Source: a virus
Length of the DNA stretch: 64,000 bases
Strand: one strand, 5' to 3'
Virus record (IMG/VR): IMGVR_UViG_3300029922_000001
Span: 230,512 to 294,511 of that record
Positions 742 to 62,084 of the stretch are shown here, in pieces. Position 1 is the stretch's first letter, and every line of letters begins with the position of its first letter. The position numbers were made by a program, and so were the translations under genes. The notes beneath the pieces were generated by a model that searched no databases, was not told the DNA's origin, and was given only the letters and a program-made list of their open reading frames with translations.

Positions 742-1076
742 GGCGTTTTAGGTTTGATTGCAAAGTATATTCCACCATCTGCTTGAAAAGAAGTCCAACC
801 ATCTAAAACACTAGACTGATCTATACCACCACATTTAATATTGAATCCAAATGTGGTTTTTTTACTTCTTATAATTAAGAATGTTTCATTTTGTTCATTG
901 GTTCTTAATGAAATATCTTGTAAGATTTCATACTCGTTTTTAAATTTTTTATTCACAATTTTAATAAAACTTTTTCTTAGATCAACGATAAAGCCGTTTT
1001 TGTATTTAGCTTTATCGTTGACTAGCTGTTCCCAAAATTCTAAATTCTTAATTAAATACATGCATACATTATACAA
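738..1076 (-). CDS. hypothetical protein
   Basis: 112-aa ORF. The opposite-strand ORF 841..1110 is hydrophobic low-complexity and judged antisense noise. Confidence 0.35.
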   Translation of the reverse strand: MYNVCMYLIKNLEFWEQLVNDKAKYKNGFIVDLRKSFIKIVNKKFKNEYEILQDISLRTNEQNETFLIIRSKKTTFGFNIKCGGIDQSSVLDGWTSFQADGGIYFAIKPKTP

Positions 1077-1470: not shown

Positions 1471-1485
1471 GCCTGTATTATAGCA

Positions 1486-3593: not shown

Positions 3594-3620
3594 ATTAGAG
3601 GCTAAAATTTAGCCTCTAAT
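3594..3620. terminator. palindromic hairpin (ATTAGAGGCTAAA/TTTAGCCTCTAAT) between the AAA+ ATPase and VWA genes
   Basis: Near-perfect inverted repeat, 13-bp arms. Confidence 0.5.
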
Positions 3621-3636
3621 CTGGTATACTCTAATT

Positions 3637-5034
3637 ATGCAATTCCTTAATCCAGTGGAAACCACAAAGATTCTTCGCGCTCTTGAGCGTTATCATATTG
3701 TGTTTTCTAAAATATTTGAATTTGGTTATGTCAGTTTCGATAAATCTGTACCTAGAGCATGTTTAAGATTTAATAAAGAAACTGGTAAACCTTTTCAGTA
3801 TGTTTTTAACCCAGATTTTTGGGAGTCAATTGATTTTGATACTAAACTTTTTATTATTAAACACGAAACTGCACACTCATTTTTGAATCATTGTCAAAGG
3901 GGAAAACAAATTTTGGCATCTGGTGGGAAAATAGAGACTTTGAATGTAGCTATGGATCTTGCCGTTAATCACATGTTGGTTGATTGCTTTGGTGTTGACA
4001 GAGATAACGTTAAAGATGCTGATAGTTATTGTTGGGTTGATACGGTTTTTCCTGATGATAAAATCCCTGATGATCTACACTTTGAGGGTTATTATGCTTT
4101 ATTGTTAAAGAAAGAACAAGATAAAAACGACGATAAAGAAGAACAAGATAAGGGTGACAATAAGGGTGATCAAGAATCTTCCGAAGACGATAAAGGTTCA
4201 TCACAAGGATCTGATGGCGGTAAAGGTTCGTCTAAACCACAAATTGTAGATAGTCATGAATTTTTAGATGAACAAGCGCAAGAAGCGTTTGAGAAAGTTC
4301 TTGAAAGAGTCAAAAAGCAATTAAACGTGGATGAACTTAAAGATTTTAATGATAAGCTTCAACAACATGGTGATGGTCCAAGCGGAATTCAATTTGAAAT
4401 TGAATTACCAAAACTTAAACCCAACTTAAAGTGGCTTAATCTTGTTACAAAATTTAAGTATAAACACAACGAACTACATTATAAAATTAAACCTCAGTTT
4501 GTTTTTAAAAATAGGCGCATGAATATGTTGCCTAAAACAAATTTAATGCCTCAAGAATATGAAGTCAGAGAAATTAGTGAAAAGAAAACCATTATTGATG
4601 TTTGGTGTTTTTTAGATGTTTCCGGTTCATGTATTAGTTTTAAAGAACATTTTCTTTTAGCTGTTAAAACTTTTCCAGAAGAATATTTTAGATTGAGGGT
4701 TTTTGTTTTTGATACTACCGTATTAGAAATAGACTTAAAAAAAACTATATTACGTTGTGGTGGTGGAACACATTTTCATATTATTGAGGATAAAATTCAA
4801 CATATATGTAAAACTGAATCTTGTAATTATCCAAGTATGGTTGTAGTGGTTACTGACGGAGAAGGAACCAGGGTTAATCCACAATATCCAAAAAGATGGC
4901 ATTGGCTTTTGACTGATAAAGCGGCTTATAAGAAAAAAGGACTAACTTATATTCCTGTGAAGTCTCGAATTTTTGAATTGAAGGAATTCTTTGATATTCC
5001 TACAGTTCAAAAACAATTAAGAAAGAAGTTTTGA
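3637..5034 (+). CDS. VWA-domain protein with N-terminal HExxH zincin-like motif (DUF2201-like architecture)
   Basis: HETAH at the N-terminus. Central acidic KD/E-rich linker. C-terminal VWA MIDAS signature DVSGS ... VVVTDGEGT. Confidence 0.65.
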   Translation: MQFLNPVETTKILRALERYHIVFSKIFEFGYVSFDKSVPRACLRFNKETGKPFQYVFNPDFWESIDFDTKLFIIKHETAHSFLNHCQRGKQILASGGKIETLNVAMDLAVNHMLVDCFGVDRDNVKDADSYCWVDTVFPDDKIPDDLHFEGYYALLLKKEQDKNDDKEEQDKGDNKGDQESSEDDKGSSQGSDGGKGSSKPQIVDSHEFLDEQAQEAFEKVLERVKKQLNVDELKDFNDKLQQHGDGPSGIQFEIELPKLKPNLKWLNLVTKFKYKHNELHYKIKPQFVFKNRRMNMLPKTNLMPQEYEVREISEKKTIIDVWCFLDVSGSCISFKEHFLLAVKTFPEEYFRLRVFVFDTTVLEIDLKKTILRCGGGTHFHIIEDKIQHICKTESCNYPSMVVVVTDGEGTRVNPQYPKRWHWLLTDKAAYKKKGLTYIPVKSRIFELKEFFDIPTVQKQLRKKF

Positions 5035-6995: not shown

Positions 6996-7626
6996 ATAAT
7001 AGTTTAGATAGGGCAATTGCTCTCATTCGATGAAAAGCTGCTGAAGATGCTAGAATTTTTTCCATAGGTGATGACTCTGGATTTTCAGCAATAGCTTGTA
7101 AATCTAGTACACTTAAATCATTAGCGTCACAGTTGTCATCATCTTCTTCTAATAAAGCTTCCCATTTTGCTTTTAATGCATTGTATTCTGATTCTAATTG
7201 AGACTGTGCAAACATAGAAAGGATTTGATCATCAATAGGATCACCAGGTTGAGCTAATTCTTCAATAGGATACGTTTTGATGTTTTCAATATCATCTTTT
7301 GTAAATGTTCCAGTACTCGCCGCACCAGTTGTGAGGGTAAGTGTGTTTTTAGGATCTGTAATGGTGATTGTTGTTGTAGTATTTGGTGTCATGGAGTTTA
7401 AAGTTTTATTTGCGGCATCATAATCGGTAATGAATCTTTGTTTGAGTTCTTCAACTGCGTTTTTTTCATAGTCCCAACTAAGTGGATCTTCTGGTAATTT
7501 GTAGTGTGCCGATTTTGACCATAAAACGTTCCAACCATAACAGAATCTTTCTAAAAAAGATAAGTGTTTGAAAGAGTGAACATTATAATGCACAGTTTTA
7601 ATTTCGTTCATGTCCTTATTATACAT
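6988..7626 (-). CDS. hypothetical protein
   Basis: 212-aa ORF preceded on its strand by TGTATAATAAGGAC-ATG. Confidence 0.5.
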   Translation of the reverse strand: MYNKDMNEIKTVHYNVHSFKHLSFLERFCYGWNVLWSKSAHYKLPEDPLSWDYEKNAVEELKQRFITDYDAANKTLNSMTPNTTTTITITDPKNTLTLTTGAASTGTFTKDDIENIKTYPIEELAQPGDPIDDQILSMFAQSQLESEYNALKAKWEALLEEDDDNCDANDLSVLDLQAIAENPESSPMEKILASSAAFHRMRAIALSKLLFN

Positions 7627-7649
7627 ATCAATTAGGGTATAATAGAGAC

Positions 7650-7942: not shown

Positions 7943-7980
7943 TTAGCTTCATAATATATAATTATATATTATGAAGCTAA
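7943..7980. terminator. perfect 34-38-nt AT-rich palindrome (AGCTTCATAATATATAATTATATATTATGAAGCT)
   Basis: Verified to be self-complementary. Lies between the two plus-strand genes 7650..7931 and 7971..8156. The ATG of the downstream gene is inside the hairpin. Confidence 0.5.
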
Positions 7981-8507: not shown

Positions 8508-8513
8508 GACTTA

Positions 8514-8741
8514 TTATAAATCAACTTTACACTTATTGTTAGTGCAATGACCTAAAGCGTCTTTTAATAGATAATTCTTAGCACCACGATCTTCATCACT
8601 CATAAGGCGATAATTTAATTTATCAATGCCTTCGTAACGAAATTTGAATTCGCTAATGATAGTTTCCATGAGTGTTTCAGCCATATCTGCTGATTCTTTT
8701 TCGTCTGTAAATAATGGGATGTCGATATGCAATCTGAACAT
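8514..8741 (-). CDS. hypothetical protein
   Basis: 75-aa ORF with a classical AGGAGA Shine-Dalgarno 7 nt upstream of the ATG. Confidence 0.5.
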   Translation of the reverse strand: MFRLHIDIPLFTDEKESADMAETLMETIISEFKFRYEGIDKLNYRLMSDEDRGAKNYLLKDALGHCTNNKCKVDL

Positions 8742-8759
8742 AATAATTCTCCTGTCTCG

Positions 8760-8833
8760 TGGTCCCTCTGCTGAGAATCGAACTCAGACCGAACCGTTAT
8801 AAGCGGTTCCGCTCTACCTTGAGCTACAAAGGG
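8760..8833 (-). tRNA. tRNA, anticodon UAU (Ile); CCA encoded
   Basis: Cloverleaf folded by hand: acceptor CCCTTTG/CAGAGGG, T-arm CTGAG-TTCGATT-CTCAG, anticodon stem AACCG/CGGTT with loop CTTATAA. Discriminator A is followed by an encoded CCA, then CGAG. Confidence 0.75.
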
Positions 8834-8996
8834 GTGTTTGTAATGGGTGTGGGGTTGGTATACGCTAATTAGCGTATACTTATGAAGCCAAACGCAGGAG
8901 AGTTCTGGGAAATATCATTATAGATTTGATAGTTTGACTTCATTACGTATCTATTATACCAGCATTTAGAGGAAAATTGTCTGAATTTCTATGTGT

Positions 8997-9233: not shown

Positions 9234-9652
9234 GGTTTTATTATACCATATTTTGGCATACGAATCATATCTATGTAACCGCCCATTTCTGCACGAGTTT
9301 TGCCGGTTTGGTTTATGAAATTTTCAACTACAAATCCATGACGATTATACCATTCGATAAGTTGTTGTTCATTTAATTTAGGTATTCCATGATCATATAA
9401 AGGAAGTGGTTTAACTTCTAACCATAAGGTTACACCATGACGATCTGCGTAATAGGAAATTTCATCTAGAGTTCTAGAAGCAAAGCCTTTAAATTCATGA
9501 TCTGATTTGATGTAATCAATATAAAGTATTTTATTATTTCTGCCTATCAATAGTTCAACTTCAATAAGACCAAAATAAATAAAATGCTGTGATGTTTTTG
9601 GTGTAACATTATATGAACATTTCATATCAAGAAGCATTTCAGAGACGCCCAT
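9230..9652 (-). CDS. hypothetical protein, possibly GNAT-fold acetyltransferase
   Basis: C-terminal LIEWYNRHGFVVENF resembles the GNAT motif-B region. This is a weak assignment. Confidence 0.4.
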   Translation of the reverse strand: MGVSEMLLDMKCSYNVTPKTSQHFIYFGLIEVELLIGRNNKILYIDYIKSDHEFKGFASRTLDEISYYADRHGVTLWLEVKPLPLYDHGIPKLNEQQLIEWYNRHGFVVENFINQTGKTRAEMGGYIDMIRMPKYGIIKP

Positions 9653-10746: not shown

Positions 10747-10766
10747 ATTAATCTCCTAATAATGAA

Positions 10767-11114: not shown

Positions 11115-11132
11115 AATCTGAGTATACCTTAA

Positions 11133-11492
11133 TTAGTCATTTATGTGTGCTAAACGACTTTTATAGATTAAAGTCGTTAATTCTTCATTGAGAAAAGATA
11201 TAAATTTATCATAATTAACATCGGCATTTTGAATGGAATGATTTACCTCTGGATATTTACCTTTATTCGAATGCACAATAACTTTTAAGTCTTGTAACAT
11301 AGCTCTTGTGGCTGGATTCCAAACATGTCCCCATCTACGATGTTCAAAACTTTTAAATATATCCAGTAATTCCTGAATGTTATATTTGACTCCCTTAACC
11401 ACAATGAAATAATGATGAACCCAAACTTGCTCAGACTCATATTTAACAGTATCAATGCCTAAATCATTCATAATATCAGAAGTATACCTCAA
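11133..11492 (-). CDS. hypothetical protein (weak paralog of 10767..11114)
   Basis: 119-aa ORF. Confidence 0.45.
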   Translation of the reverse strand: MRYTSDIMNDLGIDTVKYESEQVWVHHYFIVVKGVKYNIQELLDIFKSFEHRRWGHVWNPATRAMLQDLKVIVHSNKGKYPEVNHSIQNADVNYDKFISFLNEELTTLIYKSRLAHIND

Positions 11493-12136
11493 ATCGTATA
11501 TGATTTGAGGTTATAAAAATACGCCCTTGTTAATCTTTTGACCGTAGAGCTAGGTCCAATCCAAGACATGACGTGCCAACCACTAACACCCATTGACGAG
11601 CCTGTAACAGCCATTTGGAGCCTAATGGATATGTTCTTGACTTTCATGCCCAACTCTACACATAATGCTTTAATTGTGGTTTGAACCCACTCTAAGGAAA
11701 TGTCATTCTCACCTTCAAGAAGAGGTATATAATGATCTAAAAACAATCTAAAATCATCATCAAAAAGAGTTGGATTCTCAAAGGGAATTTCATAGTCAGA
11801 AATGGCAATACAACTCAAATGTTTAGCAAAATCAGATAGAATAAATGCTTTATCCTTAATATGCACAAGCATTTCATCAATGCGAGGATGATTCAAAGTG
11901 TCTTTGAAATGATGTAGTTGCGCTCCCATCAATCGTTTATTGAAATCCTTAATTTGCTTATTGTAGTCAACCTCATTGTCCTCATTGACTTCTATGGGGT
12001 TGTTTTTAATGATCGTATCTAAGATCATGAGATTTGGTAACTTTGAGTTATCAATATCGAACAAATTTGGTTTGTATAGAAAATCGCGCATAATGCGTTT
12101 ATTATACTTTATATTAACCCCTTTCAGCTTCTTCAA
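11489..12136 (-). CDS. hypothetical protein
   Basis: 215-aa ORF. Confidence 0.5.
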   Translation of the reverse strand: MKKLKGVNIKYNKRIMRDFLYKPNLFDIDNSKLPNLMILDTIIKNNPIEVNEDNEVDYNKQIKDFNKRLMGAQLHHFKDTLNHPRIDEMLVHIKDKAFILSDFAKHLSCIAISDYEIPFENPTLFDDDFRLFLDHYIPLLEGENDISLEWVQTTIKALCVELGMKVKNISIRLQMAVTGSSMGVSGWHVMSWIGPSSTVKRLTRAYFYNLKSYTI

Positions 12137-12533: not shown

Positions 12534-12817
12534 TATAATGGTATTATACCTTTTTTGCCGTATGTCTTGTTAGGTAATGGTTTTGTCCATGAAATCAAAT
12601 CATCGCCAGCTTTTTGCAGTTCTTTTCTAGTTGGTGTTCCATGAAGCATATACATTCCTATTGCTTTAACATCTTTTGATACATCTTCCAGTACATAATC
12701 TAATCCAGTGTAATCATGTAATTTCAACTGTGCGGCATTAGATTGTGCAATTACAGTTAAAATTGAAGCTTCTTCTGCGGGAACATTAATCATATTATTC
12801 CTCAATATAGAAGTCAC
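12533..12817 (-). CDS. hypothetical protein
   Basis: 94-aa ORF. Confidence 0.45.
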   Translation of the reverse strand: MTSILRNNMINVPAEEASILTVIAQSNAAQLKLHDYTGLDYVLEDVSKDVKAIGMYMLHGTPTRKELQKAGDDLISWTKPLPNKTYGKKGIIPL

Positions 12818-13935: not shown

Positions 13936-14144
13936 ATGATTATTATAGCTTGTTTTGTTGAGCTAAATCAAGTAGTATTTTTTGACGTTCTAATGGTGCA
14001 GAGACATAATCTGTTTTGATTAATTTACTGGTTTGCGTACTAGATAGACGATCTAATATACCAATCATGCTATTTAATAATATAATTTTTCTATTTTTTC
14101 TTTATCGCAATTTACAATAATTTTATCCAGTCTATCCAATCTAT

Positions 14145-15209: not shown

Positions 15210-15379
15210 GCTTACATTATAACACTATTTGACTATAAAATACAACACTTTAGGTGGATTACGGTAATATTTAGCTAAAGTTGCTTGACCCTCCAGTGTT
15301 GCTAATGCACGATCAATAATAGCTTCTCTATCTTTCATATCTTGAATAATTGCATTAATATTTTTCGTGTTACTCGTGG

Positions 15380-15482: not shown

Positions 15483-15503
15483 GTGAATATATTATACCAC
15501 TTA

Positions 15504-15770: not shown

Positions 15771-15776
15771 AGATTA

Positions 15777-16145
15777 TTATAGTCTAATTCTAAAAGAAAC
15801 TGATGGATCAACAATAATTACAGGTTCTGGATCATAATAACCAACAATAGGACCGTTTTCATAATAAGCTACCCCACCACCTTCATACCAAAACATGGTG
15901 ACATCACCAATAACGTAGGTTGTAACCCAATGGCATCTAGGTCTTTCACCAATGCGCCAAACACGAGTAGGAGTGAATCTATAATGTTCAAATCTACGAA
16001 TTCTAGAGTGTTCTGGTCTGCGATTTTGTTCTTGTCTAATTGCGGGTCTGCGTGATTCTTGATGACCACCACGACGCTGAGCTAAACCACTAACAGAAAG
16101 AGCTAGAATAGAGCAAAGAGCAATAAGTTTTAGATTTTGTTTCAT
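15777..16145 (-). CDS. secreted Arg/Pro-rich hypothetical protein
   Basis: Signal peptide MKQNLKLIALCSILALSVSGLA. Confidence 0.45.
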   Translation of the reverse strand: MKQNLKLIALCSILALSVSGLAQRRGGHQESRRPAIRQEQNRRPEHSRIRRFEHYRFTPTRVWRIGERPRCHWVTTYVIGDVTMFWYEGGGVAYYENGPIVGYYDPEPVIIVDPSVSFRIRL

Positions 16146-17136: not shown

Positions 17137-17388
17137 TTAGGTTTTTAGTGCAAATTCCTCATTTGTAGATACTAATTTTCTGATATATTCGGAAAGAACG
17201 TCTTCTACACCATTTGAACCATAGTCGGCAGTAAAAGCATAATCACCACCATCAATTCCTGAATTTTCGTATTTAACCAGTAGGCGCTTATGTGGTCTTT
17301 CATAAATACCAACAGCACGTCCACATACCATAGTTACATATAATCTTTGATTTTCCATGTGATTATTATAGCACAAAATCCGCCGCAA
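17137..17388 (-). CDS. hypothetical protein
   Basis: 83-aa ORF. Confidence 0.4.
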   Translation of the reverse strand: MRRILCYNNHMENQRLYVTMVCGRAVGIYERPHKRLLVKYENSGIDGGDYAFTADYGSNGVEDVLSEYIRKLVSTNEEFALKT

Positions 17389-17985: not shown

Positions 17986-18002
17986 TATTAGTATATAATG
18001 TA

Positions 18003-18429: not shown

Positions 18430-18942
18430 CTAAGTACTATCTTTAGTTGGATTAACACTAAATAATTCTTTTCTTATTTCCATCCACAATTTTCCTAATT
18501 GATTTTGTCCATCTTTATTAGGTCCCCATCCCCAAAAATTATCACGCCAACTACACTCTACGATTGCATTATCACCACTAGCTTTAAGTTTTTTCATAAC
18601 ATACGGATGTTGATTTGCTTTTTCTTTTAAAATTTCTTTCATAATATCAAGTTTAACTTCATCCCAATCAACACGTCTTATATTTTTATTTTCCTCAGCC
18701 CATTTGAAACAAGCATGTGCTGAAGGCATTTTTCTAATCATATTTTTGATTTTTGGATCGTCAAATTTCTCAGAATGATAAGCGTGTTCTGATGTTGGAT
18801 AAATCTTACCCTTCCAATATAGTTGAAATGCAGAAAAATTAGAGAAAATATAATAATCACGTTCATAACAATCAAGGATTGGTAAGTCGTAATTCGCTAA
18901 ATCGTGATATTCAATCATGCTATTATTATAAGTAATCTTCAT
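18430..18942 (-). CDS. NADAR (YbiA-like) domain protein; predicted ADP-ribose N-glycosidase/hydrolase family
   Basis: Family signatures FSNFSAF ... YPTSEHAYHSEKF ... WGWGPNKDGQNQLGKLWMEIR. Confidence 0.8.
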   Translation of the reverse strand: MKITYNNSMIEYHDLANYDLPILDCYERDYYIFSNFSAFQLYWKGKIYPTSEHAYHSEKFDDPKIKNMIRKMPSAHACFKWAEENKNIRRVDWDEVKLDIMKEILKEKANQHPYVMKKLKASGDNAIVECSWRDNFWGWGPNKDGQNQLGKLWMEIRKELFSVNPTKDST

Positions 18943-19242: not shown

Positions 19243-19521
19243 TTAATGATGTAAATAAATAATCCTGATAATGCCAAAAACAGCAAAAGTAGCGACAATT
19301 ATATTGATGATTGCAGATTGATAAATTTTCTTATGATAAGTTAGAATGAATGCGCCAGTAGCACCCATTAAAACAATAATGTAATAAATTACTTGATTGG
19401 AATTAATGACATTAAAACTAGATAATGCATAAGAAAGTATTACAAAAAATACACCTATCCAACCAATAAATTCAATGATTTTGTTTTTCAACTTTGACTT
19501 CATTGAATTAGTATACCTCAC
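19243..19521 (-). CDS. small membrane protein
   Basis: Three predicted transmembrane helices. Confidence 0.4.
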   Translation of the reverse strand: MRYTNSMKSKLKNKIIEFIGWIGVFFVILSYALSSFNVINSNQVIYYIIVLMGATGAFILTYHKKIYQSAIINIIVATFAVFGIIRIIYLHH

Positions 19522-20074: not shown

Positions 20075-20087
20075 AATTTATTATAAA

Positions 20088-22137: not shown

Positions 22138-22145
22138 TGTAACTA

Positions 22146-22293
22146 TTATACCTTACGACGAATTCGTATGAGAGTATTATCTACTTCTTTTCTTGTGATA
22201 CCTAAAAAAGCAGCAATTGCACGATAAGATTTATTTAAACCATAAGCAATATAAACCTTGGTTTCATTTTGAGTTAATTCTAAATTATTCATA
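22146..22293 (-). CDS. small (about 48 aa) LuxR/sigma-70 region-4-type helix-turn-helix protein; not in the supplied ORF track
   Basis: Hand translation gives MNNLELTQNETKVYIAYGLNKSYRAIAAFLGITRKEVDNTLIRIRRKV. This matches the LuxR-type HTH consensus (LT..E..V......G.s..eIA..LgIs..TV...l.rI..Kl). Coordinates are +/-2 nt. Confidence 0.4.
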
Positions 22294-22318
22294 AGTGTAT
22301 TATAGCATATTTTCTCGC

Positions 22319-24505: not shown

Positions 24506-24602
24506 AATAGATTGACCTATTATACCAGGGTATTCTTCTTCATTACAATCTTTCTCTATTCAATTTTCAATGTGCTTGAGTTTTAATTCTCGGTAAATAA
24601 AA

Positions 24603-24640: not shown

Positions 24641-24792
24641 GAATCTTTCTATTTGGTTTTCTTTATGCTTGCCCGACAACAGCATTTCTACAGCTTCCAC
24701 AACTTGTGGAACTGGTAGTACTTGATGTTGATGTTGACGTGACTAATTTCATTTTAACCTGCTACGTTTATTATACCCAATGTTTTGATTGT

Positions 24793-25326: not shown

Positions 25327-25339
25327 GCTTTAGTATACT

Positions 25340-25886: not shown

Positions 25887-25893
25887 ATGGCTA

Positions 25894-26883
25894 TTATACT
25901 TGAGCAAGTTCGGCTTGTAGCTCTTTAATGCGCTTTTGGAGTTCAAGTTTCTTTTTAAGTGTCGCTTCTTCTCTAAGCAAAGCTTGGAATTCAGCATCAA
26001 CTTCTTCCACTGCAACAGTCTCTAAAGCAACATGCTTCTTTATGGCTTTAGCTGCTTTAGGCATTTCTGTAGCCAAGATTGGTACATATCCTCTTAGTAT
26101 AAGAGTAAGACTTGTTGCATGATCTTCAATATCAATCCATTCTTTTTGACCAAAGGTTTGATTGGATCTGCTACCTTCAACAGTGCAAACATCTTGTTCT
26201 CTTGATTCATTTAAAGATTTTGGCATAGCATTCGCAAATGAGTCTAAAGAATCCATTGACATGCTTGAAGCGGAATATGTTGGAGAACCAAAGCTTAATG
26301 AATTCAGTGAATTTACTGAATCTGAGCATAATCCTCTTACATTGCTTTTCATGGAAGATTGACCAATTAAAGCATTATTACTACCACACCAGACTTCATC
26401 ATGTCGTCTAGGGTAATGCTTGTAAGGGTATGAATAATCACGATACCAAGGATATGAATAATCATGATAATGATGATGATCTACTACGATTGGAATGTAG
26501 ACTGGTTGTGGTTTTTCTTTTTCTAACCAGAAGAAGGCTTCAACAACACCTTTGGAGCGGTCTTCATTAGAACCATTTTTTCCAAAATCAATAGCGTCAT
26601 TACTGTCTAAAGCAGCTAATTTAAAGCATTTGTTGGTTTCATAGAAGCGTTCAAGATCAATTGCGCTGTTAGCGTTAATAATATATCCATCACCGGATAC
26701 ATTTTCCCCGTCAATATGAATTTTGACCAAGGCTCTACGATTGTTTTTGTTTCTGAGGCGTAAACTATATTCTGATCCGAATGGAACTAGTACAGAATGA
26801 TCGTTTCTCTCTGGGAGAAAGTCGTTTTGATTTTTGAGCTTGATAGCAAGCACGAAGTTTTTGTTATACATATTTTTAACCAT
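25894..26883 (-). CDS. hypothetical protein with His/Tyr-rich low-complexity segment and C-terminal coiled coil
   Basis: The ORF is open to 26949. An internal Met at about 26883 avoids overlapping the divergent PARP gene. Contains HHHYHDYSYPWYRDYSYPYKHY. Confidence 0.5.
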   Translation of the reverse strand: MVKNMYNKNFVLAIKLKNQNDFLPERNDHSVLVPFGSEYSLRLRNKNNRRALVKIHIDGENVSGDGYIINANSAIDLERFYETNKCFKLAALDSNDAIDFGKNGSNEDRSKGVVEAFFWLEKEKPQPVYIPIVVDHHHYHDYSYPWYRDYSYPYKHYPRRHDEVWCGSNNALIGQSSMKSNVRGLCSDSVNSLNSLSFGSPTYSASSMSMDSLDSFANAMPKSLNESREQDVCTVEGSRSNQTFGQKEWIDIEDHATSLTLILRGYVPILATEMPKAAKAIKKHVALETVAVEEVDAEFQALLREEATLKKKLELQKRIKELQAELAQV

Positions 26884-28380: not shown

Positions 28381-28414
28381 GATCAAGCCTGTTCTTGAGG
28401 TATAATAAATCATT

Positions 28415-29325: not shown

Positions 29326-29554
29326 AACAAAAATGTTAGGGTTTCCTCCGTATAATTCAACGTATAATTCAACGTATTGGATACGTAAAGATCATTGGGA
29401 CACCAAAAGCTATGATCAAATAGTTTTGTGTAATAAAGCTGGAAAAGCATATCATTATGCGGAAAATGGGAATATTACAGTCAGACCTAAAGGCAGGAAT
29501 GGAAGTGATATTATTTCCATTCCTCGTGATAAGGTCATATTCGTTGAGGTATAA
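29309..29554 (+). CDS. hypothetical small protein
   Basis: 81-aa ORF that overlaps the next ORF. Start uncertain. Confidence 0.3.
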   Translation: MLLKVRTKMLGFPPYNSTYNSTYWIRKDHWDTKSYDQIVLCNKAGKAYHYAENGNITVRPKGRNGSDIISIPRDKVIFVEV

Positions 29555-29780
29555 TCAAGATATGAAAATGCAAGACTTGATTGATAAAATGATTAGAGAG
29601 TATTCTGAAGAAGATAGAAAGCGATTAGAAGTCGTAATTTGCGATTATGATGAAACCGCTTCTTATGGAGACGGATATACAAATTATCCTGTGCAATATA
29701 TCACTTTGGAAAAGGGTGATTACGAAGAAGTGGATGGTCCTGGTTACGTAAAAGATACTGAATATGTGGTGATATCATGA
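29457..29780 (+). CDS. hypothetical protein (likely true start near 29562, MKMQDLIDKMIREY)
   Basis: ORF followed by a palindromic hairpin at 29793..29819. Confidence 0.4.
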   Translation: MRKMGILQSDLKAGMEVILFPFLVIRSYSLRYNQDMKMQDLIDKMIREYSEEDRKRLEVVICDYDETASYGDGYTNYPVQYITLEKGDYEEVDGPGYVKDTEYVVIS

Positions 29781-31234: not shown

Positions 31235-31265
31235 CTTTTATATAGTCCATGTCAGTATAATACGT

Positions 31266-34270: not shown

Positions 34271-34303
34271 GCTTTATTATAAGGAAATATTGATGGCTTT
34301 TAC

Positions 34304-35779
34304 ATGAATCAGTTATGGTATACTAACTCCATGTTTGACACAGATCGTTTAATTCATTTAGAAAAGCTACAAGAAGCTGGTTTAAATCCATTTGATAATT
34401 ATGGATTTAAGATGACTTCACCAATTGGGTTATATCTTGATACTTTTAATGTATTGATTAATGCTGTTTGTTTTGATAATACACATAGTTTATGTGGTCG
34501 CATTATTTCTATGCGTATTATGGGTAATATGGCTTTTGTTGATATTTCCGATGGTTCTCACAAGGTCCAGGCTGTTTTCCGTAAGAACCTAATGGATGCT
34601 GACACTTATAAGGCATTAAGATACCTAGATGAAGGTGATCATATTGGCGTGACTGGCAATCCATTTCTTACCCAAGCTGGTGAGAAGTCAATTCTTGTTA
34701 CAGAAATTAAGGTTCTAAGTAAGTGTCTTATCCCTTTACCAATTGGTAAGAGGAAGGATGGGGAAGTCTTTGATGCAGTTGTAGATCCAGATATTAGGCT
34801 TAGGCATCGTCATATTGACCTTGTAGCCAATCCAGATAATAGGGCGATGTTAATTGCACGTTCAAAGATGGTAAGCTGTATTAGGCGATTTTTAGATCAA
34901 GAAGATTTTCTTGAAGTTGAAACACCTTTACTAACTGAGGTTGCTGGTGGAGCAAGTGCTAAGACATTTGATACTCATTATAATGCTTATGATTTAGATA
35001 TGCATCTTCGTATTTCTTTGGAAATTCCTTTGAAGAAGTTGATTTGTGGTGATATTCCTGCCGTTTATGAAATTGGTAAGGTTTTCCGCAATGAAGGTGC
35101 TGACGCAACTCATAATCCAGAATTTACACTTTTGGAATGGTATCGTGCGTATTCAACACCAGAAGAGGAAATGCAAAGGGTTCAAGATTTAGTTTCATAT
35201 TTGATGCAAAAGTGGGATGCTGATCCTGCATGGGATGTAATTACTGTGCGTGATGCTATTTTAACCTATGTGCCTGATGTTTCCTGGTATGATCTTGATG
35301 TTATTGAGAAAATGAGAGAACATGCTCGTAGAAATGGAATCCATGTAACAGATCAAGATACTATGGGGAAGATTGAAGAAAAGCTAGTCGCTAAGTTCGT
35401 TGAGCCTAATCTGTTATATCCCACATTCTTAACAGAACATCATATCAGTAATTCACCTTTAGCTAGAACAGCACCAGGGAAGCCTGATCGTGCTTATAGA
35501 TTTGAAGCATATATTAATGGTTATGAAATCGCTAATGGTTATTCTGAGTTAAACAATGCAGTTGAACAAAAGGAACGATTAGAGGATCAAGTAGCTCAAA
35601 GAAATGGTGGAGACGCTGAAGCACAACCTTATGATCAAGATTTTATTTATGCTCTTGCCTCCGGTTGCCCTGCCGTAACGGGCGTGGGAATCGGTCTAGA
35701 TAGATTGGCAATGGTATTATATGGAGCAACACAAATTAGGCAAGTAATATTTTTCCCAACAATGAAGCATAGGAGTTAA
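34304..35779 (+). CDS. lysS: lysyl-tRNA synthetase (class IIb)
   Basis: N-terminal OB anticodon-binding domain. Motif 2 FRNEGADATHNPEFTLLEWYRAY is LysRS-specific (HNPEFT). Motif 3 GVGIGLDRLAMVL. Confidence 0.9.
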   Translation: MNQLWYTNSMFDTDRLIHLEKLQEAGLNPFDNYGFKMTSPIGLYLDTFNVLINAVCFDNTHSLCGRIISMRIMGNMAFVDISDGSHKVQAVFRKNLMDADTYKALRYLDEGDHIGVTGNPFLTQAGEKSILVTEIKVLSKCLIPLPIGKRKDGEVFDAVVDPDIRLRHRHIDLVANPDNRAMLIARSKMVSCIRRFLDQEDFLEVETPLLTEVAGGASAKTFDTHYNAYDLDMHLRISLEIPLKKLICGDIPAVYEIGKVFRNEGADATHNPEFTLLEWYRAYSTPEEEMQRVQDLVSYLMQKWDADPAWDVITVRDAILTYVPDVSWYDLDVIEKMREHARRNGIHVTDQDTMGKIEEKLVAKFVEPNLLYPTFLTEHHISNSPLARTAPGKPDRAYRFEAYINGYEIANGYSELNNAVEQKERLEDQVAQRNGGDAEAQPYDQDFIYALASGCPAVTGVGIGLDRLAMVLYGATQIRQVIFFPTMKHRS

Positions 35780-36353: not shown

Positions 36354-36381
36354 TCAAGAATGATTGTGGTATACTGAAATC

Positions 36382-38087: not shown

Positions 38088-38286
38088 AACAGCAATAGAA
38101 ATGTCAATATAAGAAATTAATATATTCTTAGCCACTAAAGTATTTGGTTGGACTAACGTTAAAAAGAAACGCCCTTAATTTATGTAAGGCTTCTGTTAGA
38201 ACCTTGATTCTGTTTTCTTTTTTAGCAATATCGTCTGCTACTTTTTGTTTAAATATGATATTATCTAAGCAATTATTCATAGCCTA

Positions 38287-39183
38287 TTATAAGAGAACTA
38301 CTCTGTCCTCAATAATACTCTTTACAAAACCACCAACGTATGTGGTGAACTCTGGATTCCAATGCTTAGGCATAAATTGAGGATTCATACACTCCACAAA
38401 GTGATTTCGCCAAAGCTTAATCATTCCTTCTGGTGTGTATTTAGCTACAATTAAGTTCCAAGTATTCTGTTCCTTATATCGCTTCTTTAATACATACTTG
38501 CTTAGGTTTTGGTTCTTCTTTTTAATGCTTTCTTTTAGTTCTGGAGACATGCTCTTTCGAATTTCTTCTCTAGCATCATATTCTTCCTTAGCATATTTGT
38601 AAACCAAATCAAGATCCAATGGCGCACCAATCTGCTTTTCAAGCTTATTCCATAGTGCTACCCATTCATAGCTATTCATTGAAGTTTCTGAATAAACTAA
38701 ATGGAAACACTGTTTCTTAAATGTGCCTCTCATAACCAAACTAGTATGTTCAACTTCACTCTTTAGCTTTGCCTTCAAAGGATTAGCAAACTTTTGTTCA
38801 TATAGTTCATGACATTCACGACAAGTTAACACTAAATCGTGTGCTTCAGCAAACTTCTTATACTTTACAGGAAAGAAATTACGTACACATTTAGGAATAA
38901 CGTGATGCCTGTCTAAATTATCTGGTCTACCGCAAACAACACACATAGTTTGTCTAGGTGTTTTGTAGATTGGGTGAGTCAAATTTAAAATTTCGTCACT
39001 TGGTTTCTTATTGAGTTGTAATACGCAAGGTTGCTGCGATACGATTTGTCCTTTTTCGTATCTCAATAAGAGATTAGCAATACTTCTACCTGTGTAAAAG
39101 ACTACTTCATTATTTGGGTCAACGACCTTCACATTTTGATAAAATGGATTTTCGTCTGACCACCGATTTCCTTTTGAAGCCAT
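38287..39183 (-). CDS. HNH endonuclease domain protein
   Basis: CVVCGRPDNLDRHHVIPK ... LTCRECHELYE (HNH: C..C...H-H...C..C.H). Confidence 0.65.
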   Translation of the reverse strand: MASKGNRWSDENPFYQNVKVVDPNNEVVFYTGRSIANLLLRYEKGQIVSQQPCVLQLNKKPSDEILNLTHPIYKTPRQTMCVVCGRPDNLDRHHVIPKCVRNFFPVKYKKFAEAHDLVLTCRECHELYEQKFANPLKAKLKSEVEHTSLVMRGTFKKQCFHLVYSETSMNSYEWVALWNKLEKQIGAPLDLDLVYKYAKEEYDAREEIRKSMSPELKESIKKKNQNLSKYVLKKRYKEQNTWNLIVAKYTPEGMIKLWRNHFVECMNPQFMPKHWNPEFTTYVGGFVKSIIEDRVVLL

Positions 39184-39651: not shown

Positions 39652-40196
39652 AGTTTATTATACTTAATCAGATTCTCTTCTTGTGTGATTTTATCCCAAG
39701 GTGCTTTAGATTGAAGAACTTTTTCAACAGTTGGATCATAATCCCAACGTTTAATCATATTTTGAATACTTTTAAGAGGTACACTATGTTGATTTCTTTT
39801 AGCTAATTCTTGTGCATCGAATTTCCAAGGTGTTTCAGGTTCATGAAAACTAACTTTATAATCATATTTTTGAGCAAGTTTTACGTACTCTCGAAATTCA
39901 TAAAAAGAACAATTTGTATTGTCACAAATAATAGGAGTAATACCTTGTTGCATTGCCACTTCAGTTCTTCTTTCATTTTCTTTATGATTTTCAGTTAGTT
40001 TATTAACATCAAATTTATATTCACCATTAACCATAAATAGATCATCAGTAGAATGAATAACTCCACCTTTTCCTAATTGCTTAGAAAGAAAACTTTTGCC
40101 AGAACCGGGAAGTCCGCGAATTATTCTTAACTCTTTTTCTTGTTGTGCTTTTCTATACCAAGTAGACATAATTCGATTATACCATTTTTCTATCAA
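39648..40196 (-). CDS. P-loop kinase (AAA_33 / polynucleotide-kinase-like)
   Basis: Walker A RGLPGSGKSFLSKQL and a downstream ICDNTN segment, consistent with a Walker B / Asp-containing lid. 182 aa. Confidence 0.6.
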   Translation of the reverse strand: MIEKWYNRIMSTWYRKAQQEKELRIIRGLPGSGKSFLSKQLGKGGVIHSTDDLFMVNGEYKFDVNKLTENHKENERRTEVAMQQGITPIICDNTNCSFYEFREYVKLAQKYDYKVSFHEPETPWKFDAQELAKRNQHSVPLKSIQNMIKRWDYDPTVEKVLQSKAPWDKITQEENLIKYNKL

Positions 40197-41219: not shown

Positions 41220-41407
41220 TTAAAAACCTTTACAATAAAATATGGTTTCTAAGCGTAAAATACTCAAAGTAATAAATAGAGAAATTAGAATAGTCAACTC
41301 TAATATACAAAGATGTAGTTCAAAAAGTAGCTATTTGAGACTTATGACACGTAAAATTCTCTTAATTAATTATCAACACAAATTACAATAATTCTTATAA
41401 TACAATT

Positions 41408-41800: not shown

Positions 41801-42151
41801 TTACCAAATAAGAGTTGCATAAGTTATGTCATCTTCAGTCCAATAATGGACTTCGTAGCCCATAATAGCCATTTCTGCGGCAAATAAACTACCATCATCA
41901 TGAGTTGCGTAAGTTGGTTGACTGATTGTTATTTTCCGTTTACCAGCTTGTGCTGCTCCACTAATTCGCTTAAAAACCGATGCAAAACGTTGTTCGATTT
42001 GTTCCTGACGTTGTTTCTTTTCTATTACAGGAATTGCTGTCACTTTTGGCATTAATCCTCTAGCTTCTTTGGCTTTCATATCATTATTGTACTTATAATA
42101 GAGATATGAAGCCATTATGGACAGATAGAGATCGTAGCCCAAGTGAACCAA
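41801..42151 (-). CDS. hypothetical protein
   Basis: 116-aa ORF. Confidence 0.4.
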   Translation of the reverse strand: MVHLGYDLYLSIMASYLYYKYNNDMKAKEARGLMPKVTAIPVIEKKQRQEQIEQRFASVFKRISGAAQAGKRKITISQPTYATHDDGSLFAAEMAIMGYEVHYWTEDDITYATLIW

Positions 42152-43439: not shown

Positions 43440-44302
43440 ATATTATTATAAGTCATTTTATAATCATAATCATAAGCCTTAAACCACTTCCTGATAGCAT
43501 TATCACTAACTCCATATTTCTTACCAATCTTAACCATTGATAAAGTTTTGTAATCTTCAATTAATTGTTCTAATGATGGTCTTTCTGCTTTTCGTGTATT
43601 TAATGCACGATCTTGTGAGTTTGGTAATACAATATTAAAGTATTTACATATTCTTATAATTTTACTTTCAGAACATTTAAATTGTTTGCCAATTAATTTT
43701 AATCCATTTTTATTAATCAATTGTTGGAGTTCTTCTTTGGTTAAATTATTATCATCTACCCAAATTTTATAATCTTTTTTTTGTCTTTCTTTAACCTCTT
43801 TTATTGATAAATGTTTTGCCCATAATTTGTTTTTAGATCCAAAATTATCAGTTTGACTATGACAGTTAGGACATAAAAATCTTAAATTATCTTGTGTATT
43901 ATGAGTGTAGTTTCCATCAACATGATCAACGTGTAATGTTATTTTCTTTCCTAACCAATCTTTATTGACAAAACATTCACTACCTTCACACTCATAAGGT
44001 CTTCCAGTTTCAATAAGAGCCCTAGTTAATAATTTAGATGATACTCTGTTATTTCCAAATTTTATATTTACTAAAATATCTTCGGCAGTTTTACGATTTA
44101 CACTTTTCTTGCCTCTCATCCAGTTTTCACTATTGAAATGGTCTGTATTAATATTAAAATAATTAACTCTACGTTTAATGTGTGTTTGGCTACCACCAGC
44201 TTGTACAATATTTAGATTTCTTAAAACCCCTGCATAGGAAAAACTTTTATTTACCGCTTCTTCTAATATGTCTTTTGTGTATTTTTCTTTATATTTTCTC
44301 AT
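43436..44302 (-). CDS. HNH homing-endonuclease-like protein
   Basis: HVDHVDGNYTHNTQDNLRFLCPNCHSQTD (HNH core), plus a C-terminal DNA-binding-like region. Lies directly next to the tRNA-Leu array. Confidence 0.7.
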   Translation of the reverse strand: MRKYKEKYTKDILEEAVNKSFSYAGVLRNLNIVQAGGSQTHIKRRVNYFNINTDHFNSENWMRGKKSVNRKTAEDILVNIKFGNNRVSSKLLTRALIETGRPYECEGSECFVNKDWLGKKITLHVDHVDGNYTHNTQDNLRFLCPNCHSQTDNFGSKNKLWAKHLSIKEVKERQKKDYKIWVDDNNLTKEELQQLINKNGLKLIGKQFKCSESKIIRICKYFNIVLPNSQDRALNTRKAERPSLEQLIEDYKTLSMVKIGKKYGVSDNAIRKWFKAYDYDYKMTYNNI

Positions 44303-45159: not shown

Positions 45160-45417
45160 ATATGTAACAACAATACTTAAAACAACAAAAAAAAGCCTGA
45201 TTAGGATCAGATCCCAACCAGGCTTAACAAGTAAAATACAGTACTCTTATGCAGCTAGTTGGGTTCCTCCTAATAGTAGGAGGCTTGTTAAACCTTGTAG
45301 TTGCAAAGAATTCTTGTTCACGTATATATTATAGCATGATCCGAATGAAATTAACCATAATTTCTATAAATTATTTGAAAGAAGGAATTATTCATATAGA
45401 CATTGTAGATATTTAGT

Positions 45418-47417: not shown

Positions 47418-47423
47418 ACTTTA

Positions 47424-47981
47424 TTATACGTTTGGTTTTCTATTGACAACACCTACAACAGATTGATCTTTATTTGTATACCAATCACCACTTTCTACCC
47501 CTGCTGGTTCATCTCTAAATAATGGATTATCGTAATCAGCCATTGGACTATAGTGATATTTAACTTGTTGACCATCATGAAGTTCAACAGAACCATTACC
47601 TAATGATTTTTGAATGCTAGGATGTTTTCTAACAAATATAGCTTGATTATATGGATTTTTAGCCCACGAAGGACCATCGCTAAAAAATGTTAATTCGGGA
47701 CCATCACCATGTTCGTCTTGTACATTTTGCCAATGTTCTGTACTTTTAAGAAAATCACCAGCGGAAGGATAAATACCATATTTAAAATCAGTATTATCAG
47801 GTTTTCTAGCGTGAACTAATAATTTACCTTGTTCTAATCCGCGTTGTAATTCATCATGAGACTGGTATTTGTCATCATACTCGTCATCATCAGGAAATAA
47901 TTGTAAATCATGATGATGTTCAAAGGGGTTCCAACTGTCGTCAGTATCAAATATAGCTGTTTTAATACGTCTATACCACAT
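47424..47981 (-). CDS. hypothetical protein
   Basis: 185-aa ORF. Confidence 0.5.
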   Translation of the reverse strand: MWYRRIKTAIFDTDDSWNPFEHHHDLQLFPDDDEYDDKYQSHDELQRGLEQGKLLVHARKPDNTDFKYGIYPSAGDFLKSTEHWQNVQDEHGDGPELTFFSDGPSWAKNPYNQAIFVRKHPSIQKSLGNGSVELHDGQQVKYHYSPMADYDNPLFRDEPAGVESGDWYTNKDQSVVGVVNRKPNV

Positions 47982-49558: not shown

Positions 49559-49564
49559 GCTTTA

Positions 49565-49816
49565 TTATACTCCAATAATTTCCGGTTGAGAATTGAACAT
49601 TGCATCAACTTGCTCTTGGGTGATTCTTTTGCCCTTATAATAATACTCTGGAGTATCTAATCTGTACACTTTACCATTTTCATCCACTCCGACACCAATA
49701 CAACAAATACCCTCTTCTTCATATATGTGAGGTAAATTTGATTTCCAATCTTCATTAGGATTAGAAAAATCACGAGGGGGAATTTTAATTACATTCATGT
49801 TTTCATTATAGCTCAT
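49565..49816 (-). CDS. hypothetical protein
   Basis: 83-aa ORF. Confidence 0.4.
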   Translation of the reverse strand: MSYNENMNVIKIPPRDFSNPNEDWKSNLPHIYEEEGICCIGVGVDENGKVYRLDTPEYYYKGKRITQEQVDAMFNSQPEIIGV

Positions 49817-49854
49817 GTTTTCATTATAGCGTTTAGCAGTATAATAAGAACATC

Positions 49855-54582: not shown

Positions 54583-54810
54583 GATAACTTATTATACGTT
54601 CACGATTTCTTTCGTTTCAGTCTGATATCATTCTCTTTTTTGGCATACATAATAAGGCATATAATAAATTAAGCTAGATATAAATATAAGAGGAATTTAT
54701 TTTTTGAAATTTTCAAAAAACCTGTAATTTCATTAAGTAATGAAGTATATTAATATTTTGGGTTATAACGATTAAACAAACTATTTACGCTTAGGTGTAT
54801 AATAGTAGTG

Positions 54811-56772: not shown

Positions 56773-56861
56773 AGTATTGTTATTTTAAATTTGCAATTAT
56801 TAATATCCTTTTTTATTTATTATCCATTTTTGATGATCGTTTGATGTATACTAGAATTATG

Positions 56862-57332: not shown

Positions 57333-57371
57333 ATATAGCATTATCATACGTTTGCTTGGTATAATCAATGT

Positions 57372-59789: not shown

Positions 59790-59947
59790 TTGTATAACTC
59801 CTTGACTATTTACAAAATAATAACATACTAGCTATTTCCATGCAATCTTAGCTACTGGATGTTTCACTGTTTTATTGCGATGGGCTATTAAGATAAAATA
59901 TGTAATGTCAATGTATTTATACACTGACATTACATATTTTATTATTC

Positions 59948-62077: not shown

Positions 62078-62084
62078 ACTTCAA

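Follow-up and report, generated by a model that had tools for sequence, protein, structure and literature searches.

Most middle and late transcripts of the Thermus thermophilus phage phiYS40 are reportedly leaderless and start from extended -10 promoters, as is said to have been described by Sevostyanova et al. in 2007. Among bacteria, GeneMarkS-2 group C (Actinobacteria, Deinococcus-Thermus) is characterized by a Pribnow box 6-8 nt from starts; in that model the box is found at the first genes of operons, internal genes being served by a ribosome-binding site (RBS). Experiments on Deinococcus radiodurans showed that an open reading frame (ORF)-adjacent TANNNT box works as a -10 element, needs no -35 and yields leaderless mRNA, and that a GGAG class of genes exists alongside the leaderless one; in D. 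deserti, 60% of the mRNAs are leaderless. Among very large phages, no leaderless transcripts were detected for phiKZ, most of whose 5' untranslated regions (UTRs) are 31-40 nt long, and the UTRs of AR9 measure 26-491 nt; a survey of huge phages reports that Shine-Dalgarno (SD) sequences are seldom identifiable in some lineages, and mentions IF1 and IF3 among the genes of such phages. Here we describe a stretch of 64,000 nt from IMG/VR record IMGVR_UViG_3300029922_000001 (positions 230,512 to 294,511; the window), where a TATAAT hexamer, a putative -10 promoter box, recurs at a fixed short distance from the ATG of many genes.

The window is identical to positions ~231,361-295,360 of the 521,591-bp metagenomic contig k141_1408874 (ENA ERZ27248709), which, with its phage hallmark genes, fits the megaphage class (>500 kb): the source is an uncultivated marine megaphage of 521 kb. 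GC content of the window is 33%, and small ORFs are organized in long same-strand arrays.

Spacing was evaluated by counting, on both strands, the ATGs found at each distance after TATA[AC]T, with 200 dinucleotide-preserving shuffles as controls. A 6-nt gap is found 28 times (3.7 +/- 1.9 in shuffles, maximum 11) and a 5-nt gap 13 times (3.8 in shuffles); other gaps are flat. Taken together, 41 occurrences face 7.5 +/- 2.6 in shuffles (maximum 17), so the recurrent -10-like element, first claimed by a sequence-only reading of the window, is real. The longer form GGTATAMT is present 26 times, against 4.9 in shuffles (maximum 12). A non-circular set of starts, made of the first ATG of each selected ORF, provided 107 upstream regions: TATAAT is the top enriched hexamer in the 20 nt before these ATGs (33 of 107, 2.0 expected, p = 7e-31), and no SD hexamer is near the top. 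Unbiased motif discovery on 30 nt upstream, by expectation maximisation with zero or one occurrence per sequence (ZOOPS-EM), recovers gGTATAATaaa in 52% of the 107 regions, with frequencies of 0.97 for A-11, 0.97 for A-9, 0.95 for T-7 and 0.91 for T-12; at 34 of its 53 sites, the hexamer ends 5-6 nt from the ATG.

The motif discriminates starts well: a strong copy precedes 35% of ORF first ATGs, against 0.95% of 2412 non-start ATGs. Exact TATAAT or TATACT is located 4-9 nt before the ATG of 48 genes, and with one mismatch allowed about 52-57 of the ~110 window genes carry the motif. Distances of 6 nt (22 sites) and 5 nt (11 sites) prevail. Coupling is to ATG only, GTG and TTG showing no peak; 37 of 43 strong-motif genes (86%) have a pyrimidine at -1, and +1 is A. 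Individual sites are reported in Table 1. The plus-strand examples given earlier all exist, with the ATG quoted as 56862 actually at 56859; among the minus-strand ones, the motif placed at 7626 belongs to ATG 7611, and the hexamer before 13181 reads TACAAT.

Genes with the motif and genes with an SD form separate classes. An SD (GGAG, GAGG or AGGAG at 4-10 nt) is present in none of 54 motif genes and in 11 of 56 others, in keeping with the earlier remark that motif genes often lack one; the AGGAG sequences it listed at 8741, 10746 and 35781 are correct. AGGAG is found 5 times in the window, against ~0.5 by chance (our own estimate), and therefore the host ribosome does use SD sequences. GAGG inside GAGGTATAAT was considered as a possible SD and rejected: it lies 12-15 nt from the ATG, outside the 4-10 nt of the real SD genes of the window. 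Start annotation is also affected. As suspected, the ORF track extends many genes to an upstream TTG or GTG, where public calls choose the motif ATG (proteins of 107, 182 and 207 aa); they do the same for genes 7650-7931 and 8280-8507. At three loci (7628-7927, 8108-8443 and 28395-28826) our greedy set of longest ORFs is wrong, an overlapping motif-bearing ORF being better, and for the first two the public caller picks the latter. Gene callers tuned to SD sequences misplace starts in such genomes, and recognition of the -10 box corrects the N-termini.

Transcription usually starts 6-7 nt after the -10 hexamer. A spacing of 5-6 nt equals this -10-to-start distance, from which we infer a start at the ATG, and a pyrimidine at -1 followed by A at +1 is a preferred context for transcription start. 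The sequence features considered make it likely that the element belongs to a sigma-70-family promoter independent of a -35, of which it would be the -10 box, and that transcription starts at the A of the ATG; about half of the window genes are probably transcribed singly as leaderless mRNAs. All sequence-level predictions examined came out positive for the proposal, already made in the sequence-only reading, of a -10 hexamer driving leaderless transcripts. RNA polymerase would be placed to start at this A or at a base next to it, producing mRNAs with neither 5' leader nor SD, whose 5'-terminal AUG would be recognised directly by ribosomes, probably 70S together with fMet-tRNA. The box would most likely be read by the host primary sigma factor, because TATAAT is its exact consensus. 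A minority of genes, including that for a major-head-like protein, rely on a classical SD (AGGAG/GAGG), and a few units (the IF3 gene, the tmRNA, a tRNA) have this promoter followed by a short leader. Leaderless initiation is reported to require a 5'-terminal AUG, and the coupling of the motif to ATG alone fits this requirement.

Conservation around the hexamer is confined to a short interval. Alignment of 46 sites on the hexamer reveals T at -17 (30/46), a purine at -16, G at -14 (20/46) and G at -13 (27/46), with C tolerated at the fifth base of the hexamer and an A-rich stretch from -6 to -4; the consensus may be written T-17, R-16, n, G-14, G-13, TATAAT, AAA. Further upstream than -17, no conservation is seen in the 46 sites. 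As conservation is limited to -17 to -4, a repeated mobile cassette is ruled out. A canonical -35/-10 sigma-70 promoter is likewise ruled out, as a -35 signal is absent: for TTGACA placed 16-18 bp upstream, the mean best match is 2.56/6, against 2.57 at random positions, a 5/6 match is reached at 0 of 50 motif sites, and a two-hexamer promoter scan gives 95 sites with 96 expected. The element had been called an extended -10 of the TGnTATAAT type. The TGn part of this label holds loosely, since among 43 strong sites TG (T-15/G-14) is present in 9 only, T-15 is at background, and the extension consists mainly of G-14 (18/43) and G-13 (27/43). GG precedes the hexamer in none of 11 sites with 5-nt spacing and in 13 of 31 others (Fisher p = 0.009, post hoc). 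Sites with 5-nt spacing read TATAATAAAGY-ATG and are mostly found at tight same-strand junctions; GG-bearing and 5-nt-spaced sites may be two promoter subclasses.

The same architecture could be read by a factor encoded by the phage, either a sigma factor or a phage protein remodelling the host RNA polymerase so that it initiates without a -35. A sigma-70-family protein of 193 aa is encoded outside the window, ~1.3 kb left of its first base (L009 11999-12580); it contains regions 2 and 4, both in this genome and in its 91%-identical relative L003, and matches the SigB/F/G and ECF families best. Its gene has no motif and features an SD-like AAGGA, as expected if it were expressed ahead of the motif class. 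SigB- and SigF-type -10 boxes are GGGTAT-like, which resembles the GGTAT in GGTATAAT. With the -35 absent and TGn non-canonical, unaided host sigma-70 may moreover be weak here. Against these points, the invariant core is exactly the primary-sigma consensus, and it is kept at the 30 of 43 strong sites without GG; sigma factors with region 4 generally depend on a -35, which is not seen at these sites; the motif precedes genes of all kinds, including tRNA, tmRNA and IF3, with no modular distribution. Reading of the box by a phage factor is on balance improbable, and equally improbable is a role of the phage sigma limited to the GG-TATAAT subclass.

The distribution of the motif outside protein-coding starts was analyzed with a position weight matrix (PWM). 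Of the 45 best sites, 32 are located 4-9 nt before the ATG of an ORF of at least 50 codons and one more precedes a 48-codon ORF. Seven of the other 12 are found at the tmRNA, at a tRNA, upstream of tRNA-Ile, and at a 29-codon ORF, the IF3 gene and two leadered ORFs, leaving about 5 without explanation. The tmRNA gene is confirmed by Rfam (62.9 bits), and the GGTATAAT copy before it is a predicted promoter of a non-coding unit. The tag predicted for this tmRNA, GKSYAYVG, is atypical and lacks the usual ALAA-type ending. A candidate small RNA unit at ~45185-45333 (-) contains CCUCC and GGAGG in its hairpin and has no Rfam match; it is flanked by the tRNA-Leu cluster and by the 5' end of a TnpB gene, to whose upstream region it is antisense.

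Gene layout is informative as well. Five divergent gene pairs, with start codons only 26-60 nt apart, have the motif on both sides; promoters must be in these gaps, where nothing else is conserved. In 29 cases, a strong-motif gene is preceded by another gene on the same strand: the TAA stop of the preceding gene provides bases 3-5 of TATAAT in 10 of them, resulting in regular 6- or 7-nt intergenic gaps, the hexamer lies wholly within the upstream coding sequence (CDS) in 5, and is intergenic in 14. Such stop-fused and CDS-embedded layouts imply a promoter for nearly every gene. Promoter, upstream stop and start codon fit in ~15 nt, which would result in mostly monocistronic transcription of a 0.5-Mb phage genome. 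The 18-nt tandem duplication at 49798-49830 (-), GCTATAATGAAAACATGA twice, provides gene 49565-49816 with a second copy of its promoter and of its start codon.

A motif acting in RNA, as a non-SD translation signal or as an endonuclease site trimming polycistrons before each AUG, would fit the RBS-like distance of the element, which is kept even in operons and in upstream coding sequence; terminators are few, so that polycistronic RNAs are likely, and GeneMarkS-2 group B genomes feature non-SD motifs at similar distance. The sequence itself, with its near-invariant A-11 and T-7, carries however the hallmark of the sigma-70 -10 consensus. It shows no complementarity to the 16S 3' tail, where the anti-SD resides, and it also heads genes whose RNA is not translated, as well as separate units delimited by terminators. 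In the divergent gaps just described, it is the sole conserved element where a promoter must exist, and the -1 and +1 bases match the choice of start site by RNA polymerase. An RNA-level role is accordingly regarded as very unlikely.

Conservation of the element was evaluated in related phage contigs. In L005 (40-80% amino acid identity), the orthologs of genes 3637, 9692, 10038, 10767, 11489 and 12114 feature TATCAT or TATAAT 6-7 nt before the ATG, with diverged flanks. For gene 3637, the orthologous starts read gaggTATCAT-N6-ATG in L005 and gggTAGAAT-N6-ATG in L007 (34% identity). The N5-6 pattern exceeds all 200 shuffles in the relatives L003, L005 and L007; it does not do so in L006 or in the huge phage LR756511 (42% GC), the latter having SD hexamers, such as AAGGAG, among the most enriched before starts. 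Judging from this comparison, the start-adjacent signals are a class under selection. That the pattern is a compositional by-product, generated by AT-rich junctions and by TAA stops at a set distance from the next ATG, has next to no probability: the low GC content and the ten stop-fused junctions would agree with it, but the shuffles fall far short of the observed count, starts that have no stop ahead of them carry the motif just as well (14 divergent and 14 clearly intergenic ones), G-13, G-14 and T-17 are enriched, the hexamer is kept at orthologous starts while flanks diverge, and the motif is missing from L006 and from the related 42%-GC phage.

Some observations weigh against leaderless transcription from start-adjacent -10 boxes. 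Strong intrinsic terminators are few in the window, so read-through transcripts would hold many internal cistrons without SD. Exact TATA[AC]T is found 210 times in total (181 in shuffles), ~160 of them away from starts, with no depletion: either the hexamer alone is insufficient, or the phage tolerates internal starts. Both the -10 box and the SD are missing from about 45 ORFs, some of them being probably spurious or translationally coupled. The upstream extension, as noted, is not the canonical TGn. Finally, the phage encodes an IF3, and in E. coli an excess of this factor inhibits leaderless translation, low levels being helpful.

The phage IF3 is a full-length, two-domain protein (IF3_N 1e-23, IF3_C 3e-19), which can be aligned over its whole length with three IF3 structures, among them those of E. 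coli and Thermus. Its close relatives, with identities of 99% and 73%, are confined to related phage contigs, whereas identity to bacterial IF3s is 43% at most; the nearest named ones are from Alphaproteobacteria and Myxococcota, at a level of identity too weak for host assignment. R99, Y107, K110 and R116 of E. coli IF3 are replaced by S, L, S and E; as the third structure also has S at the R99 position, the meaning of the substitutions is ambiguous. The gene has a GGTATAAT promoter without being leaderless: a leader of 7 nt is predicted for it, and one of ~20 nt, with AAGG, for its counterpart in the related contig L014. An in-frame ATT-ATG is present at the IF3 start, both here and in L014. 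Bacterial infC starts with AUU, which the ATT-ATG recalls.

Directly upstream of the IF3 gene, of Tpt1 and of genes for tRNA-Thr (cgt, tgt, ggt), tRNA-Ser (tga, gga, gct) and tRNA-Cys, on the same strand, is a unit (24604-24777, -; ~6800-6990 in L014) in which a GGTATAAT promoter precedes a leadered ORF of 29 codons, MKLVTSTSTSSTTSSTSCGSCRNAVVGQA, followed by a 14-bp terminator. Ser and Thr make up 45% of the ORF, encoded by eight different codons, and 2 Cys are present. The region is near-identical in nucleotides in L014, whose IF3 is only 73% identical and where Ser/Thr tRNAs are also found downstream. By analogy, the unit looks like a thrL-style attenuator sensing the phage's own tRNAs; apart from the terminator, its minimum-free-energy fold contains only a hairpin within the ORF, the candidate antiterminator being just 7 bp.

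These elements might be combined into two translation channels, a leaderless half and an SD-led minority, gated by the phage IF3, a scheme that we consider rather unlikely. The leaderless half would consist of monocistronic mRNAs translated independently of the host SD pathway; IF3 would tolerate or favour 5'-terminal AUGs or, acting as a timer, would accumulate until leaderless genes are switched off and SD-led late genes on; the leader ORF and the terminator before IF3, Tpt1 and the tRNA genes would add attenuation-type feedback from phage tRNAs. With an IF3 gene in the same window, the purpose of phage-encoded initiation factors becomes a testable question. More generally, leaderless expression is proposed as an explanation for the scarcity of SD sequences in this marine clade, and the signal is a possible clue to the host, if it mirrors the promoter and ribosome properties of the latter.

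The gene content of the window is that of an accessory region of a huge phage. It includes PARP, GMP reductase, a class II aminoacyl-tRNA synthetase, polynucleotide kinase-phosphatase, two TnpB, HNH and GIY-YIG endonucleases, NADAR, Tpt1, IF3 and a GH108 lysozyme/endolysin-like protein. ARAGORN calls the tmRNA and 11 tRNA genes, Rfam adding 2 more tRNAs. Pfam scans of 45 further ORFs, mostly small, revealed no IF1, S21, S1 or anti-sigma factor. Gene 3637-5034 (+) encodes a DUF2201_N/VWA protein, whose nearest database relative, at 31% identity, is in the uncultured phage LR756511 (595 kb); an IMG/VR scan with this gene gave no match. No near DNA match to the window was found among 50,697 phage records (INPHARED), and a host search, in which GTDB genomes were scanned with the GMP reductase, gave a single weak, irrelevant match.

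PARP probably starts at ATG 27082, with GGTATTAT-N6 before the ATG, the public call being 432 aa and the longest ORF 527 aa; together with the NADAR protein (18430-18918, -) it forms a possible writer/eraser pair for ADP-ribosylation. Mobile nucleases are numerous, and in L005 the GMP reductase gene carries an HNH insertion. Neither of the two major-head-like genes has a -10 box, and a bidirectional hairpin (59900-59935) lies between them. Two over-long tRNA genes (15380-15482, -; 44872-44973, -), with ~30 extra nt that may be insertions or introns, are recognized by Rfam and not by ARAGORN. An ORF-free gap of 610 nt (16527-17136) contains a tRNA-like gene with a long insert (~17010-17101, -) and a lone tRNA 3' half (~16750-16800, -). 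A spacer CGAGA-n-AATAT is found directly before the tRNA 5' ends at 21099, 22406, 22601, 44651 and 44973 (-), and CCA-CGAG after several tRNA 3' ends, as well as at 19520-19530, where no tRNA is called; these sequences may be a processing signal.

Table 1. Positions of motif sites, SD sites and other features in the window; distances are from the element to the start codon or to the RNA gene.
Element or feature	Distance (nt)	Start or unit	Position	Strand	Remarks
TATAAT	6	ATG 1061 (gene 738-1061)	1068..1073	-	upstream stop within hexamer; public caller same ATG
TATAAT	6	ATG 1470 (gene 1069-1470)	1477..1482	-	
GGTATACT	6	ATG 3637 (gene 3637-5034)	3623..3630	+	13-bp hairpin 3593-3621 adjoins
TATAAT	6	ATG 7611 (gene 6988-7611)	7618..7623	-	divergent from 7650
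GGTATAAT	6	ATG 7650 (gene 7650-7931)	7636..7643	+	
TATAAT	8	ATG 7971 (gene 7971-8156)	7957..7962	+	within palindrome
TATAAT	5	ATG 8507 (gene 8280-8507)	8513..8518	-	includes TAA stop of gene 8514-8741
GGTATAAT	6	ATG 9233 (gene 8997-9233)	9240..9247	-	entirely within upstream CDS
GGTATACT	6	ATG 11114 (gene 10767-11114)	11121..11128	-	L005 ortholog ggggTATAAT-N6-ATG
GGTATACT	9	ATG 11471 (gene 11133-11471)	11481..11488	-	predicted leader ~3 nt
TATAAT	9	ATG 12091 (gene 11489-12091, Anticodon_2 domain)	12101..12106	-	
GGTATAAT	9	ATG 12533 (gene 12114-12533)	12543..12550	-	within upstream CDS
TATAAT	6	ATG 13935 (gene 13579-13935)	13942..13947	-	
TATAAT	6	ATG 15209 (gene 15009-15209)	15216..15221	-	
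TATAAT	5	ATG 15770 (gene 15504-15770)	15776..15781	-	upstream stop within hexamer
TATAAT	6	ATG 17358 (gene 17137-17358)	17365..17370	-	upstream stop within hexamer
TATACT	4	ATG 17985 (gene 17710-17985)	17990..17995	-	
TATAAT	6	ATG 18918 (gene 18430-18918, NADAR)	18925..18930	-	upstream stop within hexamer
GGTATACT	6	ATG 19503 (gene 19243-19503)	19510..19517	-	
TATAAT	5	ATG 20074 (gene 19724-20074)	20080..20085	-	
GGTATAAT	7	ATG 22137 (gene 21796-22137)	22145..22152	-	
TATAAT	6	ATG 22292 (48-codon ORF 22146-22292)	22299..22304	-	directly after tRNA-Ser
TATACT	5	ATG 25326 (gene 24793-25326)	25332..25337	-	
TATAAT	6	ATG 25886 (ORF 25653-25886)	25893..25898	-	
GGTATAAT	8	ATG 28415 (ORF 28415-28843)	28399..28406	+	
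GGTATAAT	6	ATG 29562 (ORF 29562-29780)	29548..29555	+	
TATAAT	7	ATG 31269 (gene 31269-31502)	31256..31261	+	
TATAAT	5	ATG 34270 (gene 33578-34270, VWA)	34276..34281	-	divergent from 34331
GGTATACT	6	ATG 34331 (class II aminoacyl-tRNA synthetase 34331-35779)	34317..34324	+	
GGTATACT	6	ATG 36382 (gene 36382-37500)	36368..36375	+	
TATAAT	5	ATG 38280 (ORF 38128-38280)	38286..38291	-	upstream stop within hexamer
TATAAT	5	ATG 39651 (gene 39205-39651)	39657..39662	-	within upstream CDS
GGTATAAT	6	ATG 40169 (gene 39648-40169)	40176..40183	-	upstream stop within hexamer
TATAAT	6	ATG 41408 (gene 41408-41800)	41396..41401	+	
TATAAT	6	ATG 42106 (gene 42106-42456)	42094..42099	+	
TATAAT	5	ATG 43439 (gene 42765-43439)	43445..43450	-	within upstream CDS
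TATAAT	5	ATG 47417 (gene 47109-47417)	47423..47428	-	upstream stop within hexamer
TATAAT	5	ATG 49558 (gene 48377-49558, DUF4419)	49564..49569	-	hexamer bases 3-5 = TAA of gene 49565-49816
TATAAT-gaaaac-ATG, twice		ATG 49816 and ATG 49798 (gene 49565-49816)	49805..49828	-	divergent from 49855
TATAAT	9	ATG 49855 (gene 49855-50547)	49840..49845	+	
TATAAT	8	ATG 54582 (gene 53962-54582)	54591..54596	-	
TATAAT	7	ATG 54811 (gene 54811-55245)	54798..54803	+	
GGTATAAT	6	ATG 56108 (gene 55887-56108)	56115..56122	-	upstream stop within hexamer
TATACT	6	ATG 56859 (gene 56859-57332)	56847..56852	+	
GGTATAAT	6	ATG 57372 (polynucleotide kinase-phosphatase 57372-58250)	57358..57365	+	
TATAAT	5	ATG 61511 (gene 61152-61511)	61517..61522	-	within upstream CDS
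GGTATAAT	6	ATG 62077 (gene 61508-62077)	62084..62091	-	upstream stop within hexamer
TATAAT	6	ATG 62675 (gene 62085-62675)	62682..62687	-	back to back with 62691-62696, 26-nt divergent gap
TATAAT	5	ATG 62702 (gene 62702-63010)	62691..62696	+	
GGTATAAT	18	tmRNA gene (63063-63417)	63037..63044	+	terminator hairpin 63421-63450 after tmRNA
GGTATAAT	8	tRNA gene (15380-15482)	15491..15498	-	
GGTATAAT		leadered 29-codon ORF (24661-24750)	24770..24777	-	14-bp terminator 24604-24639
GGTATAAT	13	ATG 24505 (IF3 gene 23975-24505)	24519..24526	-	predicted leader 7 nt
GGTATAAT	~120	tRNA-Ile (8760-8833)	8953..8960	-	small ORF and hairpin between
TATAAT		candidate small RNA unit	45328..45333	-	strong terminator (45192-45226) about 100-130 nt on
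SD class, AGGAG	7	ATG 8741	8742..8760	-	no -10 box; L005 ortholog keeps AGGAG
SD class, AGGAG	6	ATG 10746	10747..10765	-	L005 ortholog keeps AGGAG
SD class, AGGAG	8	ATG 59789 (major-head-like protein, 58569-59789)	59790..59810	-	
PARP			27082-28380	+	WGR, regulatory and catalytic domains
TnpB (IS605-family)			45418-46764	+	
TnpB (IS605-family)			52685-53794	-	
GIY-YIG/NUMOD3 endonuclease			51206-52018	+	
HNH endonuclease			38287-39183	-	
HNH endonuclease			43436-44302	-	
Major-head-like protein			58569-59789	-	PHROG 2522 'major head protein', E 3e-17; adjacent paralog of next
Major-head-like protein			59948-61027	-	PHROG 2522 'major head protein', E 4e-13
Tpt1/KptA 2'-phosphotransferase			23392-23952	-	RNA repair/processing
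Polynucleotide kinase-phosphatase			57372-58250	+	RNA repair/processing
Cyclic-phosphate-processing receiver domain			55271-55696	+	RNA repair/processing
Rv2179c-like 3'-5' exoribonuclease			29886-30398	+	RNA repair/processing

Compared with described systems, the window shares with group C bacteria (D. radiodurans, D. deserti, M. tuberculosis) a box few nt before the start, with no -35 required, and a separate, mutually exclusive class of GGAG-type SD genes, a third to 60% of the genes being affected. It differs from them in belonging to a phage, in its GC content of 33%, in a hexamer that is nearly always perfect and in the restriction to ATG; the box, moreover, is not limited to operon-first genes, as shown by the stop-fused (10/29) and CDS-embedded (5/29) sites. 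Extended -10 (TGn) sigma-70 promoters work without a -35, of which the window sites show no signal, and have a G at -14, which is enriched here (18/43), whereas in the window T-15 is not enriched, TG is found at 9 of 43 sites, and the strongest extra position is G-13 (27/43). Gram-positive promoters feature a TRTG '-16 region', which T-17 and R-16 recall.

T4 late promoters, too, consist of a single AT-rich box, without -35, before many genes of a large phage. The T4 late box TATAAATA (gp55) was tried as a candidate and rejected: it occurs 16 times, with 13.8 expected, and only one case, at 50564, is start-proximal. Unlike that box, the hexamer described here ends with T in 95% of sites; leaders with an SD are present in T4 late mRNAs. 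phiKZ and AR9 have, like this phage, very large genomes with many promoters, and differ by their phage-encoded multisubunit RNA polymerases and other promoter motifs.

phiYS40 is, by analogy, the closest functional analogue among phages. This large phage of 32.5% GC features a -10-like box, with TG/TGTG upstream of it, 6-7 nt before many annotated starts; its motif genes have no SD, its other genes a strong GGAGG, and inspection by eye assigns about 15 of 58 to the motif type. Degeneracy of the boxes is higher than here (TATAMT-N5-6-ATG 3 times, 3.0 expected, in the first 50 kb), and the extension is TG, where here it is G-14/G-13. Searches of a phage collection with the window genes (blastn, tblastn) gave no match to phiYS40, and no paper in the literature collection searched was found to link leaderless expression with huge phages. 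Leaderless expression in itself is known, although uncommon; what is unusual here, in comparison with the systems considered, is its setting in a giant phage, the gene-by-gene, stop-fused layout and the co-resident IF3.

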